Positions 9,603 to 60,101 of a stretch of DNA of 64,000 nt are shown in pieces. The position numbers were made by a program, and so were the translations under genes. The stretch is from Candidatus Omnitrophota bacterium (GTDB lineage: Bacteria; Omnitrophota; Gorgyraeia; Gygaellales; Profunditerraquicolaceae), in contig JBAZJY010000001.1 in the NCBI GenBank assembly GCA_041651115.1, positions 261,165-325,164 of the forward strand, given 5' to 3'. Under the pieces are notes generated by a model that saw only the letters and a list, made by a program, of their open reading frames with translations, had not been told where the DNA came from and ran no database searches. The stretch's first letter is position 1. The number at the start of each line of letters is the position of its first letter.

Positions 9603-10298
9603 ATGATGAGAGCGATTAATAGAATACTGACGATAAGTTTTATCCTGCTAAGCGTTCTTATTTTTACGCAGGACATTTTTGCTTATCAAAATGAACCCAG
9701 TGGTTTTGGGGGCATAGCGTGGGGGACGGATATAAATAATTTAGAAGGTTTGAGGCAAGTTCGCCGGGATGCTTCTTTTTTAGTCTATGTAAAAGAAAAT
9801 GACGATCTGGATTTTGAAGGCATTTTAGCAGAAAAAATCGAGTATCATTTTTTAAATGATAAATTCGAAAGTGCATGGATTTATTTCACCGTCGATAAAA
9901 CAGCTGAAATAAAGAGAAAACTGGTTGAAAGATACGGGGATCCAAATACAGCAGGTTGGGATAATATAAAAAATGATCTTTTGTGGTGGCAAGGAGAGTT
10001 TACGGGAATTAACTTATTAGGCGGTAGCTATGAGTGTATAATTATGTTTAAGGATTTTCATAAAGATTCTGAGTGGCATAAGCAGGAGCGCCTGAATGAA
10101 GGATTGATGGAAGATCTGGAAAAAAGATATAAAGAATTAATAAAATCTGGGCGTTCGGAAAAAGAAGCTATTAAAGAGTTATCTGATTGGTTGAATGAGA
10201 ATGAATTGATAGAAGCTGCAGCGCCTACTGAAGATGATGCTATTCGTATACTCTTTAAAACTGGCGAGGAATCTGGATTCAATGTTAAAGAGTATTAA
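9603..10298 (+). CDS. Secreted hypothetical protein, paralog A of a tandem pair.
   Basis: A signal peptide is present (MMRAINRILTISFILLSVLIFTQDIFAYQ). The first ~55 aa and the internal block YVKENDDLDFEGILAEKIEY are near-identical to those of the next gene. Confidence 0.6.
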   Translation: MMRAINRILTISFILLSVLIFTQDIFAYQNEPSGFGGIAWGTDINNLEGLRQVRRDASFLVYVKENDDLDFEGILAEKIEYHFLNDKFESAWIYFTVDKTAEIKRKLVERYGDPNTAGWDNIKNDLLWWQGEFTGINLLGGSYECIIMFKDFHKDSEWHKQERLNEGLMEDLEKRYKELIKSGRSEKEAIKELSDWLNENELIEAAAPTEDDAIRILFKTGEESGFNVKEY

Positions 10299-10334
10299 TG
10301 CGGGACGGGAAGGTTCGCCGCAAAAGAGGCAGCG

Positions 10335-11066
10335 ATGAGAGCGATTAATAGAATACTGACGATAAGTTTTATCCTGCTAAGCATTTTTATTTTCACGCAG
10401 GACATTTTTGCCTATCAAAATGAGCCTAAAGGTGGCTTTAGGGGCATGGCATGGCGGGCAGATATAACTAATTTTAAAGATTTAAAGCTGGATCGCAAGG
10501 ATGGCAATTTTTTAATTTATGTAAAAGAAAATGACGATCTGGATTTTGAAGGCATTTTAGCAGAAAAAATCGAATATGAGTTTTTCAATAATAAATTTCA
10601 ACAAGTAAATTTTTATTTTAATTTAATCAAGGCAGATGATGTAAGGAAAAAGCTGTTGGAAAAATATGGTAACCTGGGCTCAAGGGATAACTCAATATCT
10701 AATCTTATACAATGGCAAGGGACATCTACGGGTATTGATCTGTTCATCGATAGTTCTGGATGCAAGGTTAAATTTAGAGCCTTAAACGATGATTCTGAAT
10801 GGTTTCAGCAGGTAAAATTGGATTATGTTTTGGGAGAAGAGACGGCGAAAAAATATAATAATTTAATTGATTCCGGGAGTTCGAAGGAGAATGCTGCTAA
10901 AGAATTAGCTGATTGGCTTAATAAAGAAAAATTAGTAGAAGCCGCATCGGCAGATAAAGACGTTCTTATGATAAAGCATAAATCGGGCGTAACTGACGCT
11001 ATCTATAACCACGAAGATGGATATGAGGGCCGTAGTGATTTGCGGCAGGTTGAAAGTATTCAATAA
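10335..11066 (+). CDS. Secreted hypothetical protein, paralog B of the tandem pair.
   Basis: Its 5' ~160 nt are almost identical to those of paralog A, including the same signal peptide. The C-terminal half is diverged. Confidence 0.6.
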   Translation: MRAINRILTISFILLSIFIFTQDIFAYQNEPKGGFRGMAWRADITNFKDLKLDRKDGNFLIYVKENDDLDFEGILAEKIEYEFFNNKFQQVNFYFNLIKADDVRKKLLEKYGNLGSRDNSISNLIQWQGTSTGIDLFIDSSGCKVKFRALNDDSEWFQQVKLDYVLGEETAKKYNNLIDSGSSKENAAKELADWLNKEKLVEAASADKDVLMIKHKSGVTDAIYNHEDGYEGRSDLRQVESIQ

Positions 11067-14362: not shown

Positions 14363-14460
14363 AAAAATTGACAAATTGTTAATTATATGCTATCTTTATA
14401 TTACCTATGAAAGATCATATAGGAAGCTAAAAGAGTATATTCGAGTAAATAAGCATAAAG

Positions 14461-14498
14461 CCTTCGTTTTTTAAAGCGAAGGTTTTTGTGTTTTTTTC
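14461..14498 (+). terminator. Rho-independent terminator.
   Basis: The hairpin gccttcg-tttttt aaag-cgaaggt is followed by tttttgtgttttttt. Confidence 0.5.
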
Positions 14499-14639
14499 CG
14501 TTTTTAGGCTAATATAGTTAGCTTGCACCTCTTTAATCATAATTCCTTGCTATACCTCCCCCACTTCTTTCGTCTATTAAGTAGGAAAAATTGTTGCTTT
14601 TAGGCTTTTGCAGTAGGATAATATAACCAGTTTCACAAC

Positions 14640-14920
14640 TCGAGGGGGAGCAGCAAAATGAGTAAGCTATTGGCTTACTTAATGGCTACGCTTCTGCCTT
14701 CTCGCGCGTAGGGCCCGGAAACCTTGACCAATACTCTGGTTGAGCTCTGGATAACCTGAAATGAAGGATCCCGTTGGGTTGTGATAAGGAAGGGTTAGCT
14801 TTTGGCTCGGGAAACCGAAACCCGAAGGTGTTGGCTTGCTTTAGGGATTCGCAGAGATAAAAAGGCGGAGGATAACCTTAGCTGAGTATGGCGAAGGCCC
14901 GCCGCTTAGCCATTCTTATT
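14640..14920 (+). other. Candidate structured RNA or long leader in the AT-rich island. This is unverified.
   Basis: This non-coding stretch is locally GC-rich. An 8-bp closing helix (aatggcta … tagccatt) encloses about 235 nt that contain several internal hairpins (gtaagc-tattg-gcttac, gggcccgg…, ggctcggg…). Confidence 0.2.
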
Positions 14921-14957
14921 TTTATATTGTTGTTTTTTAAAACTGAGGAACATTGTA

Positions 14958-18476: not shown

Positions 18477-18790
18477 GATTATGTGCTCTGTCTATCATTT
18501 ATGTATCTGTTTGCCGCGTAGTAATGCCCGGCGCGCCCTGCAGTTGGCAGACCTTTTTAAGTCGTAATTTTAATATCTAAAAATGCGCCTTCCTATATCA
18601 AAAAATCTGATAATTCCCTATTAATCGATATCGGAAAATCCGATAATCTTTCTTTACAGCGATAGAAAAGGCAGGTATAATTAACCGAATTAAGGTCAGT
18701 TTTTGCCGTATGTGAATTTATATGATTCGGGGCGTGGCTCTCCTCGCCAAAAATCGGCGAGGATTTCGCCACTTGACGAACAAAGAATAG

Positions 18791-18868
18791 CGGGGCGTGG
18801 CTCAGTTTGGCTAGAGCGCTTGAATGGGGTTCAAGAGGTCACAGGTTCAAGTCCTGTCGCCCCGACCA
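18791..18868 (+). tRNA. tRNA-Pro(GGG), with CCA encoded.
   Basis: The acceptor stem is cggggcg/cgccccg, the D-stem is gctc/gagc and the anticodon loop is atGGGgt. The 3' end is acca. Confidence 0.8.
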
Positions 18869-18883
18869 ATTAAGCACCCAATC

Positions 18884-18928
18884 CTAAAGGATGGATTGGT
18901 GTGCATTTGCTATGCAAAGGAGGATAAG
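18884..18928 (+). promoter_or_regulatory. Conserved two-hairpin leader motif (copy 1) upstream of the PilZ gene.
   Basis: The sequence is cacccaatcc-taaaggat-ggattggtg-tgcat-ttgct-atgca-aaggagga-ATG. A second copy with compensatory base changes lies at 59505-59558. Confidence 0.4.
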
Positions 18929-19288
18929 ATGGCTTATCCGGGCCCGGAAAGGCGCAGATTTCCCCGTATTGACGGGCGTTTTATCGTATCTTACCGCATC
19001 CTTGAAGAATCCGATAATATTGACATTACCCAGACAAAGAACTTAAGCCTCGGCGGGATGCTCCTTACTACTAATAGGAAATTTGACCCCGGGACAAACC
19101 TGGCGCTGGAAATACGATTGCCTTTTGATCCTGACCCGATCATGCTCATTGGTAAAGTCGTTGAATCACATGAGATCACAAAGGGCTTGATCTATGATAC
19201 CCGGATGATGTTTCTGGCGATTGACGAAAAGCACAGGGGCATATTATCGCAGACGATAATGCATTATTTAAAGAGGAGCGGCAAGTAA
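18929..19288 (+). CDS. PilZ-domain protein.
   Basis: The RRRFPRIDG and NLSLGG motifs identify the domain. The track ORF starting at 18824 overlaps tRNA-Pro, so the start at the Met codon at 18929, which has the RBS aaggagga, is preferred. Confidence 0.6.
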   Translation: MAYPGPERRRFPRIDGRFIVSYRILEESDNIDITQTKNLSLGGMLLTTNRKFDPGTNLALEIRLPFDPDPIMLIGKVVESHEITKGLIYDTRMMFLAIDEKHRGILSQTIMHYLKRSGK

Positions 19289-34510: not shown

Positions 34511-34538
34511 TTGACAAGCTTTTTTTTTGCCATATAAT
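34511..34538 (+). promoter_or_regulatory. Sigma70-type promoter for groES-groEL.
   Basis: The -35 TTGACA at 34511-16 and the -10 TATAAT at 34533-38 are separated by a 16-nt spacer. Confidence 0.5.
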
Positions 34539-34564
34539 TAGCACTCTGTAAAATAGAGTGCTAA
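34538..34564 (+). promoter_or_regulatory. CIRCE operator (HrcA binding site).
   Basis: TTAGCACTC-tgtaaaata-GAGTGCTAA is a perfect match to the CIRCE consensus TTAGCACTC-N9-GAGTGCTAA. Confidence 0.9.
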
Positions 34565-52934: not shown

Positions 52935-53000
52935 TTTAGGTCTTAGGTGTTAGGCATTGCATTCTGCCACCTATGACCTATCACCTAACACCTATCACCT
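52935..53000. repeat. TAGGTGATAGG-family palindromic repeat, intergenic between guaA and dnaE.
   Basis: The left arm is tttaggtcttaggtgttaggc. The right arm cacctatgacctatcacctaacacctatcacctag is an inverted repeat of it. Confidence 0.65.
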
Positions 53001-53008
53001 AGAAGACC

Positions 53009-56477: not shown

Positions 56478-56506
56478 TTGACATCGTAAGTTTTTGTTGG
56501 TATTAT
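56478..56506 (+). promoter_or_regulatory. Sigma70-type promoter for the HU gene.
   Basis: TTGACA and TATTAT are separated by a 17-nt spacer. Confidence 0.5.
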
Positions 56507-58116: not shown

Positions 58117-59514
58117 ATGTTACGCACGCATACCTGCGGCGAATTGACCGTTAAAGATACAGATAAAGAAGTTGTTCTCTGCGGCTGGGTAGCTACGCGC
58201 CGCGACCACGGTAAGCTTATTTTTATTGATATCCGCGACCGCTCCGGCCTTACGCAAGTTGTGTTCTTGCCTAAAGACTGTCCGGAAGCTTATAAACAGG
58301 CGCAGGAGCTAAGAAGTGAGTTTGTGATTAAGGTCACCGGCAAAGTCAATAAGCGTCCGGCAAATACAATTAATCCTAAGCTGCCGACAGGAGAGATTGA
58401 GATCCTGGCTAAGGAGCTTGAGATTTTAAACCCCAGCCTTACTCCGCCTTTTGAAATTCAGGATGAGCTGGATATTACCGAAGAAATGCGCTTGAAATAC
58501 CGCTACCTTGATTTACGCCGGAAAAAAGTATTTGATAATTTTATCCTGCGGCATAAGCTTTATGGAATTATCCGCGGTTTTTTGAATAGCGGAGGCTTTA
58601 TTGAATGCGAAACTCCGATCCTGACCAAGTCTACGCCGGAAGGCGCGCGCGATTATCTGGTGCCTTCAAGGGTAAACCCGGGGAAATTTTTTGCCCTGCC
58701 TCAATCGCCGCAGTTATTCAAACAGATATTCATGGTTGCCGGCATAGAAAAATATTATCAGATCGCCAAATGTTTCCGCGATGAAGATTTACGCGCTGAC
58801 CGTCAGCCGGAATTCACCCAGCTGGATTTGGAAATGTCGTTTGCAGAAGAAGAGGATATCTTCTCGCTTTTTGAACAGCTGATGCAAAAAATATTTAAGG
58901 AAATAAAAGGCGTTGAGCTTAAAGTCCCTTTTCCCAGGATCAGCTATGCCGAGGCGCAAAGCAAATATCAAACCGATAAGCCCGATTTAAGGAAAGAACA
59001 TAACTCTGATTTTGCCTTTGTCTGGGTAGTTGACTTCCCTTTATTCAAGTACAATAATGAGGAGAAGCGCTGGGAAAGCGAGCATCACCCTTTTACCGCG
59101 CCTTCGGCAGCAGACCTGGAAATCCTGGAGAAGTCGCCGGATAAGGTGAAATCCCGCTCTTACGACCTGGTACTTAACGGCATGGAAATAGGTTCCGGTT
59201 CCATCAGGATACATAACCAGGAGTTGCAGGAGAAAATTTTTAATATCATCGGCATAGGATCTGAAGAGGCGCGCAAGCGCTTCGGGTTCCTGCTTGAGGC
59301 ATTTCAATTTGGAGCGCCGCCGCACGGCGGATTTGCCTTCGGCATAGACCGGCTTCTGGCGATCATCGCGGGTGAGCCGAGCATCAGGGAGGTAATCGCC
59401 TTTCCCAAGACAAGCGCCGCATTCTGTTTGATGACAGGTGCGCCTTCGGACGTAGAAGAAAAACAATTGAGAGAACTGGGCATTGAGGTTAAAAGGAAGA
59501 ACACCCGAACCTAA
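58117..59514 (+). CDS. aspS: Aspartyl-tRNA synthetase, short form without the GAD insertion domain.
   Basis: An N-terminal OB fold is followed by the motif-2 region CFRDEDLRADRQPEFTQLDLEMSF and the motif-3 region GGFAFGIDRL. At 465 aa it is shorter than the usual ~590 aa. Confidence 0.85.
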   Translation: MLRTHTCGELTVKDTDKEVVLCGWVATRRDHGKLIFIDIRDRSGLTQVVFLPKDCPEAYKQAQELRSEFVIKVTGKVNKRPANTINPKLPTGEIEILAKELEILNPSLTPPFEIQDELDITEEMRLKYRYLDLRRKKVFDNFILRHKLYGIIRGFLNSGGFIECETPILTKSTPEGARDYLVPSRVNPGKFFALPQSPQLFKQIFMVAGIEKYYQIAKCFRDEDLRADRQPEFTQLDLEMSFAEEEDIFSLFEQLMQKIFKEIKGVELKVPFPRISYAEAQSKYQTDKPDLRKEHNSDFAFVWVVDFPLFKYNNEEKRWESEHHPFTAPSAADLEILEKSPDKVKSRSYDLVLNGMEIGSGSIRIHNQELQEKIFNIIGIGSEEARKRFGFLLEAFQFGAPPHGGFAFGIDRLLAIIAGEPSIREVIAFPKTSAAFCLMTGAPSDVEEKQLRELGIEVKRKNTRT

Positions 59515-59558
59515 AGGACGGTTCGGTGTGCACTTACTGTGCAAAGAGGAGGGGAAAA
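59505..59558 (+). promoter_or_regulatory. Conserved two-hairpin leader motif (copy 2) upstream of the LysM lipoprotein gene.
   Basis: The sequence is cacccgaacc-taaaggac-ggttcggtg-tgcac-ttact-gtgca-aagaggagg-ATG. Relative to copy 1 it carries three compensatory base-pair changes. Confidence 0.4.
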
Positions 59559-60101
59559 ATGAAAGTACGTAGCATACTTTCCGTTTTGATTTTAGTTTCG
59601 GCTTTTATGTTATCAGGCTGCGTGGTCAGGACGTATGAAGTAACCCGGGATAGAGTTGATCAGGATTTATCAATGGGCAACCGCGGTTACCTGATGGGCC
59701 AGGCGCCCGCGGGGGAATCCGGGCTTAAAGAAAAAAGAATGACGCGCCAGACACGTGTCGTGGAGATCGAATTGGGCTCTCCGATAAAGTTTGAGCGGCT
59801 TAAGAAACAAAAGTCGGCGCAGGTAGAGGAAGTCATTATTGAAGAAACAATGGTTGATTATCCTGCCGACGAAGAAGCTGTCCCAAGCCGTATGCAAAAA
59901 GGGAATTTCCAGAAATATACCGTGCAAAAAGGCGATACCCTCCAGAAGATCTCGCAGAAATTTTTCGGCACGACCAAGAAATGGCCCAAGATCTATGATG
60001 CCAACAGCGAAGCGCTGAAAGGCCCGAATAAAATATATGTCGGCCAGACGCTGAACATCCCTGTTGACGCAATGAAGGAGCCGAGAGAAAATCTTAAATA
60101 A
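59559..60101 (+). CDS. LysM-domain lipoprotein.
   Basis: The lipoprotein signal MKVRSILSVLILVSAFMLSGC is followed by a C-terminal LysM domain (YTVQKGDTLQKISQKFFG…IYVGQTLNIP). Confidence 0.65.
   Translation: MKVRSILSVLILVSAFMLSGCVVRTYEVTRDRVDQDLSMGNRGYLMGQAPAGESGLKEKRMTRQTRVVEIELGSPIKFERLKKQKSAQVEEVIIEETMVDYPADEEAVPSRMQKGNFQKYTVQKGDTLQKISQKFFGTTKKWPKIYDANSEALKGPNKIYVGQTLNIPVDAMKEPRENLK

Follow-up and report, generated by a model that had tools for sequence, protein, structure and literature searches.

The 64-kb window, by which we mean the whole stretch of DNA that was analysed, derives from Candidatus Omnitrophota, as judged by its PilZ protein, and contains two copies of a stem-loop repeat, at 18874-18916 and 59501-59543. 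The element is a dispersed, insertion-derived two-hairpin unit that prefers the junction between an upstream stop codon and a downstream Shine-Dalgarno (SD) sequence, and its targets are unrelated to one another. The explanation that we favour, and consider probable, is that both sites are copies of an interspersed two-hairpin repeat of ~46 nt which has spread through the Omnitrophota, arises by insertion, lies between cistrons and has a generic structural role.

Each window copy consists of a bulged hairpin of 10 bp and a second hairpin of 4 bp, with an SD adjoining. The features at the two sites are as follows.

18791-18868: tRNA-Pro(GGG); copy 1 begins 6 nt later
18874..18916, + strand: copy 1 (hairpin 1 and hairpin 2), between tRNA-Pro and the SD of the PilZ gene
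18874..18902, + strand: hairpin 1 of copy 1, a predicted fold with its register taken from family covariation
18874-18902, 18875-18901, 18876-18900, then 18878-18899 through 18884-18893, + strand: base pairs of hairpin 1 in copy 1, with C18877 bulged
18885-18892, + strand: hairpin-1 loop of copy 1, UAAAGGAU
18903..18915, + strand: hairpin 2 of copy 1, GCAU / AUGC with loop UUGCU
18917-18924, + strand: SD of the PilZ gene, AAGGAGGA, unpaired in the predicted fold
18929-18931, + strand: ATG of the PilZ gene (PF07238)
58117..59514: aspS open reading frame (aspartyl-tRNA synthetase, tRNA-synt_2)
59501..59543, + strand: copy 2, linking the aspS 3' end to the SD of a gene for a LysM lipoprotein
59501..59529, + strand: hairpin 1 of copy 2, with C59504 bulged and the loop UAAAGGAC at 59512-59519
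59512..59514, + strand: TAA stop codon of aspS, inside the hairpin-1 loop of copy 2
59530..59542, + strand: hairpin 2 of copy 2, GCAC / GUGC with loop UUACU
59546-59552, + strand: SD of the LysM gene, GAGGAGG
59559-59561, + strand: ATG of the LysM gene (PF01476)

The shared-letter pattern CACCCNNNNCTAAAGGANGGNNNGGTGTGCA matches the window only at 18875-18905 and 59502-59532, both on the + strand, where no match is expected by chance (100 shuffles), and a covariance model run with its filters off found no third copy in the 64 kb. The covariance-model scores (R1) are 66.6 bits for copy 1 and 72.4 bits for copy 2. Over ~45 nt the copies differ at eight positions, six of which fall in three compensated pairs: from copy 1 to copy 2, hairpin 1 changes from A-T to G-C and from T-A to A-T, and hairpin 2 from T-A to C-G. 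An earlier note on this DNA had described a two-hairpin sequence in two copies with an adjacent SD; the sequence, the pattern match and folding all bear this out, and its three pairing-preserving stem changes (A-T/G-C, T-A/A-T, T-A/C-G) were read correctly. The element that it placed upstream of PilZ is likewise real, but the start given, 18884, is off by ~10 nt and the true start is 18874.

The folding energy of each copy lies below that of its own shuffles (z = -3.05 for copy 1 and -2.65 for copy 2), and the SD of both genes is unpaired in the predicted folds. Copy 1 ends one base 5' of AAGGAGGA. Loop-loop or loop-SD pairing was also considered and was dropped, as only three to five weak pairs are possible by eye. 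In copy 2, the aspS stop codon lies inside the hairpin-1 loop, so that the last four codons of aspS are element sequence. Each copy further carries a GTG within GGTGTGC (18899-18901 and 59526-59528) that is in frame with the downstream ATG, with no stop between, so that ORF-finding programs report a spurious N-terminal extension (for example 59526..60101). The in-frame GTG in both copies is probably due to chance and constitutes an annotation trap.

Intergenic promoters in the window are of the canonical TTGACA-N17-TATAAT form, and strong sigma-70-like sites precede tRNA-Pro (18653-18681) and the hisS-aspS unit (56478-56506). Neither element coincides with a promoter-like site or a terminator-like site on the + strand. 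Given these upstream promoters and no promoter or terminator at the elements, both copies appear to be internal to transcripts. It is very improbable that the element is itself a promoter or an intrinsic terminator. Its location at gene boundaries would suit such a function, and hairpin 1 of copy 2 was flagged as terminator-like, on the - strand only; yet the canonical TTGACA-N17-TATAAT arrangement is absent from the element, its covarying stems would be unexpected of promoter hexamers, and no U-run follows either hairpin on the + strand. Promoters of the sigma-54, sigma-70 and ECF types were rejected by eye for the tRNA-adjacent and window copies on account of inconsistent spacings.

Two other intergenic features of the window were recorded in passing. 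At ~34538-34564, a CIRCE-like inverted repeat, TTAGCACTC-N9-GAGTGCTAA, stands right after a TTGACA/TATAAT promoter, with two ORFs downstream whose lengths, 99 and 546 aa, would suit groES and groEL. A 595-nt gap at 14363-14957 has no ORF of at least 80 aa, opens with a promoter-like TTGACA...TATCTT and matches no Rfam family at E <= 0.1; either a non-coding RNA that has yet to be described or a decayed gene could account for it.

The repeat extends well beyond the window. Metagenomes were scanned with the pattern CACCC-N5-TAAAGGA-N6-GGTGTGC, which leaves the inner stem free, and 93 matches were obtained in 90 stretches. At least four of the five unconstrained inner pairs are complementary in 88 of the 93, where chance would give ~7%, and the inner stems of these copies have many different sequences. 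The earlier note would have counted a motif limited to its two loci against its own reading, and the wider search has instead yielded ~88 further pairing copies. A first covariance model was built from five copies; on the metagenome loci, covariance modelling gave 139 copies. Elsewhere, ~20 matches occur in 1.13 Mb from 80 species. Density by exact pattern is low, at one stretch per 100-650 kb contig, and the window holds two in 64 kb. Wherever the source of the downstream protein clusters is named, it is Candidatus Omnitrophota, and the repeat pattern has no match in viral contigs.

At the Rfam gathering score, the whole window matches only four tRNAs, and at E <= 10 the two sites give only chance-level microRNA and sRNA matches. 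A search of the literature on Omnitrophota RNA motifs, extragenic palindromes and CsrA returned nothing relevant. The repeat family appears to be undescribed, with no Rfam model and no paper in the literature searched. The window also holds a second, unrelated type of hairpin-forming sequence: long imperfect inverted repeats with GGTTAAG / TTAGGT-like heptads fill two intergenic gaps (1842-1966 and 52937-53001), with arms of 51 nt at 78% and 18 nt at 89% complementarity.

The genes downstream of the repeat have little in common. Most of 80 orthologous PilZ loci, each from a different species, lack the element; the order tRNA-Pro to PilZ is common among them, and most of the spacers are short, A/T-rich and element-free. 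A full copy precedes PilZ in L057, and full copies precede LemA, after a TPM-domain gene, in L032, L055 and L071. The 35 downstream proteins that were tested contain 56 Pfam families with no common theme. They include Hsp70 (DnaK), RecA, ribosomal protein S3 and RNase Y, as well as P-II, chorismate synthase (AroC), NifU and SpoVG. The proposal that the element is a PilZ leader fails on both counts, since the orthologous loci mostly lack it and the other downstream genes are unrelated.

The same observations bear on the suggestion of a small riboswitch-like sensor, for example of c-di-GMP, that would control PilZ. One copy before a PilZ-domain gene is its sole support, and we find the idea scarcely credible. 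The element consists of two simple hairpins in 46 nt, with no junction or pocket and no multi-helix core, and the search at E <= 10 gave no Rfam match above chance level. The SD is left unpaired in all of the predicted folds, and nothing indicates a second, competing structure. No coherent gene set lies downstream, where tRNAs occur in addition to the unrelated protein families, and most PilZ orthologues do without the element.

Many of the copies share a fixed register relative to the neighbouring genes. In a census of 82 unique contexts, an SD (AGGAGG) lies 0-1 nt after hairpin 2 in 40, with the start codon 5-9 nt further on. In 25 contexts a long ORF terminates close by on the upstream side, and in 18 of these its stop codon occupies a fixed register (0, -13 or -20). 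The stop lies directly before CACCC in nine cases, is the UAA of the hairpin-1 loop in seven, as in window copy 2, and is a UAG just past the loop in two. Relative to flanking long ORFs, orientation is ~77 sense to 23 antisense by a crude gene call. Three antisense copies abut the SD of a gene on the opposite strand, and two copies among the relatives recovered by covariance modelling are reversed between + strand genes. Copies were further seen in tandem arrays, in inverted clusters, upstream of promoters and beside terminator-like hairpins.

Several copies immediately precede a tRNA gene or occupy spacers within tRNA clusters. A larger known RNA was considered for the tRNA-adjacent hairpin arrays and was rejected, as Rfam gives only tRNAs, group I introns and an FMN riboswitch. 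The group I introns (RF00028) are located in tRNA clusters of two Omnitrophota genomes (L004 1442-1652 and L077 5243-5434). In the window, the segment between tRNA-Tyr and tRNA-Gly (9603-11066) contains two ORFs (231 and 243 aa) without a Pfam match on record, and in relatives such as L071 the tRNA-Tyr/tRNA-Gly spacer holds hairpin-repeat arrays instead.

FMN riboswitches provide a further site of occurrence. At least eight that were confirmed by Rfam (L086, L116, L120, L126, L134, L141, L155 and L158), together with L079, contain one to four antisense copies within the aptamer. In the loci that were read through, these insertions sit in variable loops, and the ribBA-ribH junction of these rib operons is bridged by a copy in the sense orientation. 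Seven rib leaders with insertions (L090, L100, L110, L113, L115, L151 and L163) have no FMN match at the Rfam gathering score, and we attribute the missing matches to the repeat insertions. The rib leader of L151 (700-960) is among those with repeat insertions. In three unrelated contigs, a GC-rich palindrome, CCTGCCTGCCGGCAGGCAGG, was seen inside or beside repeat copies (L037 198-270, L071 14977-15051, and L110 near 7221 on the reverse strand), which suggests another small palindromic insert.

Evidence for insertion comes from the comparison of empty and filled sites. In L033 and L035 the tRNA and the opening bases of the spacer match those of the window, with exactly the ~46-nt block absent. 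At the aspS-LysM junction, for which relatives were found by protein homology and not by the DNA pattern, L173 represents the empty site: aspS overlaps the LysM start (ATGA), and the SD is inside the aspS coding sequence. In L174 a copy fills this very point of the junction, and its stem variant and stop register both differ from those in the window. Gene spacing alone suggests that, of two further aspS-LysM relatives, one is filled and one is empty. The grpE-dnaK junction contains two tandem copies in L145 and one in L150, and elsewhere the number of copies at a locus reaches three in L084 and four in L151. Three species retain the element at the SRPBCC junction, where their differences are compensated.

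The genes between inverted copies were considered as a possible transposase and rejected, being ribBA, ribH and kdpA, and neither a transposase nor any other mobility agent was identified at the loci. Convincing target-site duplications were not found around the copies. The flanks are rich in A throughout; window copy 1 is bordered by AAG, and flank matches of 2-4 nt occur at a few others.

Across the family, covariation places hairpin 1 in a register of 10 bp with a bulged C and outer pairs R-U, C-G and A-U, and hairpin 2, of 4 bp, stacks directly on it. Among 15 diverse copies, nine of the ten hairpin-1 pairs vary in both partners, with 98.7% of cells paired, a count that leans toward structure, as the set was picked by a structure-aware model. 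Aligned over 37 distinct copies, the family has 98.8% of its cells paired and double changes at all seven variable pairs; pairing drops to 24-41% in slid controls. The hairpin-2 pairs 34-42 and 35-41 also covary across copies. G.U accounts for 3 of 259 cells in the variable pairs. The same stem variants recur at unrelated loci, AATCC at L095, L120 and L127 and GAACC at L085, L111 and L165, and the two window copies represent variants of one dispersed repeat.

These shared variants and the near-absence of G.U make the covariation weaker as evidence for RNA. The earlier note took the compensatory changes to argue for a functional RNA structure; pairing is indeed kept in many copies, but it carries less weight than was assumed. 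Such a pairing pattern is as expected for a DNA palindrome as it would be for a selected RNA. A purely DNA-level palindrome, selfish or structural, is one alternative; it could be of the REP/RAYT type or be bound by a DNA-binding or recombination protein. The RNA hairpins would then be incidental, and adjacency to the SD would reflect a target preference or the only tolerated sites. Consistent with this possibility, copies occur in both orientations, in tandem and inverted clusters and as insertions into riboswitch loops; one stem variant appears at unrelated loci, and the scarcity of G.U fits Watson-Crick upkeep on both strands. In addition, three of the five stem pairs differ between L145 and L150 at grpE-dnaK, where by eye the coding DNA on either side has diverged only moderately (mean column identity 83% over the whole alignment), and this suggests turnover or conversion over slow compensatory drift.

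Against an exclusively DNA-level origin stand the few copies per genome, the strong sense bias, the fixed registers of stop codon and SD, and retention at the same junction in diverged species. Low density (two copies in 64 kb, or about one exact-pattern site per 100-650 kb contig) counts against a selfish repeat and, with the lack of an identified mobility agent and of clear target duplications, also tells against the insertion-derived repeat that we favour. Further, the GTAG/CTAC head of REP is not visible, and no transposase was seen. We consider this alternative rather unlikely. The sense bias and the exact SD abutment weigh against a merely generic role as well, as they suggest that an RNA-level role more specific than that of a spacer is selected.

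The letters outside the stems have a bearing on what that role may be. Unpaired letters are kept between the window and L174, which share the same junction in diverged species and were matched through protein homology instead of the DNA pattern. These conserved letters point to a putative sequence-specific partner, which our favoured explanation does not name. The earlier note saw in the GGA motifs of the loop and the SD the pattern of leaders bound by CsrA/RsmA. The repeat would on such a reading be an operator cassette for a CsrA/RsmA-type protein, or for another protein that reads an AAGGA loop, and it would spread a post-transcriptional regulon; a dimer would bridge the hairpin-1 loop GGA and the SD GGA ~27 nt downstream and repress translation.

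Several features resemble those of CsrA/RsmA leaders and of Rsm sRNA hairpins, namely a loop GGA, an SD GGA and a bridgeable spacing between them. Both window copies present the loop UAAAGGAU/C and an AAGGAGG or GAGGAGG SD ~27 nt apart. In the window and in all pattern-selected copies, A-AGGA-U lies in an 8-nt loop with AGGAGG 26-28 nt downstream, and a loop-SD spacing of 26-28 nt falls in the range that CsrA dimers can bridge. Conservation of the unpaired letters at one junction across diverged species, and the bias toward the sense orientation, are compatible with the same idea. However, the GGA is not conserved in this family: it is found in the loop of only ~32 of 71 copies that were not selected for it, and UGA and GGU are common, even beside an SD. 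Unlike a CsrA leader, the entire cassette recurs before unrelated housekeeping genes and before tRNAs, and copies are found antisense within riboswitch loops and upstream of promoters. A tblastn search for csrA gave no match in the window and the fetched loci, 1.6 Mb that comprise small parts of many genomes. A CsrA-type operator is a weakly supported possibility, and we judge it quite unlikely.

A broader version would treat the repeat as a mobile translation-control cassette, in which the SD-like loop UAAAGGAU and the bulge are read by a sequence-specific partner. The partner could be a global RNA-binding protein, or the 30S anti-SD at a standby or re-initiation site. This, too, we hold to be unlikely. 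If true, each insertion would split a coupled gene pair and put the downstream gene under shared post-transcriptional control, and a regulon would be spread by a repeat in an uncultivated phylum.

Among known repeats, the closest kinds are REP/BIME and MIRU, and the best reading of the comparison is that the element would be an insertion-derived, REP/MIRU-like repeat. Like the REP/BIME sequences of Enterobacteria and Pseudomonas, it is a short imperfect palindrome with a conserved bulge, dispersed between genes, probably co-transcribed in operons and present in both orientations and in clusters, and its stems vary among copies while pairing is kept. RNA hairpins of REP stabilise upstream mRNA and may affect translation near a stop codon. 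Our repeat is, however, far sparser than REP, which has hundreds of copies per genome; it comprises two stacked hairpins with conserved loops and abuts the SD exactly, and its copies are mostly direct, not alternating, with a ~3:1 sense bias. The GTAG/CTAC head of REP is not visible in the repeat alignments.

Mycobacterial MIRUs are similarly units of 40-100 bp between operon genes and oriented with them, the upstream reading frame enters the unit and stops there, and tandem copy number varies between strains, as it does here between L145 and L150 at grpE-dnaK. Yet there is no sequence relationship, and MIRUs are not defined by hairpins; the present repeat ends before the SD and does not overlap the downstream start, and it has antisense copies. 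Correia, BOX, ERIC and MITE-like elements are also small non-coding repeats near gene starts that are transcribed and can alter the expression of neighbours. Correia, BOX and ERIC are longer (100-150 bp or more), and typical MITEs have terminal inverted repeats and target duplications, neither of which is evident here.

Under the insertion-derived repeat that we favour, a discrete DNA unit would have been inserted, or copied by recombination, into gene junctions. In the sense orientation, the repeat would fill the whole intergenic space: its 5' side would give the upstream stop (a UAA before CACCC, the loop UAA or a UAG past the loop), and its 3' end would come to lie 0-1 nt from the downstream AGGAGG. 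The predicted transcript of copy 1 would run from the tRNA-Pro promoter through tRNA-Pro and the element into PilZ-hom-thrC, and that of copy 2 from the hisS-aspS promoter through aspS and the element into LysM. The element RNA would fold as two stacked hairpins and leave the SD single-stranded. Upstream translation would be ended, and an overlapping, coupled gene pair would be converted to a stop-hairpins-SD arrangement, which could serve as a nuclease barrier or as an insulator of the ribosome-binding site (RBS) between segments of a polycistronic RNA. We infer a role in mRNA stability or translational decoupling; the role would not be that of a gene-specific or ligand-sensing switch.

These results carry a caution for motif discovery, as compensatory changes between two copies looked like a dedicated regulatory RNA and proved to be variants of a dispersed palindromic repeat. 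For the annotation of Omnitrophota genomes, the repeat is of use in the calling of gene ends, false N-terminal extensions and riboswitches. Its habits are unusual: it bridges stop codon and SD exactly, its stop codons can serve more than one reading frame, gene pairs that overlapped become separated cistrons, and it has colonised the variable loops of FMN riboswitches, several of which it seems to have pushed below the Rfam score threshold. In these organisms, the repeat may represent a natural example of an RBS-insulating intercistronic module.
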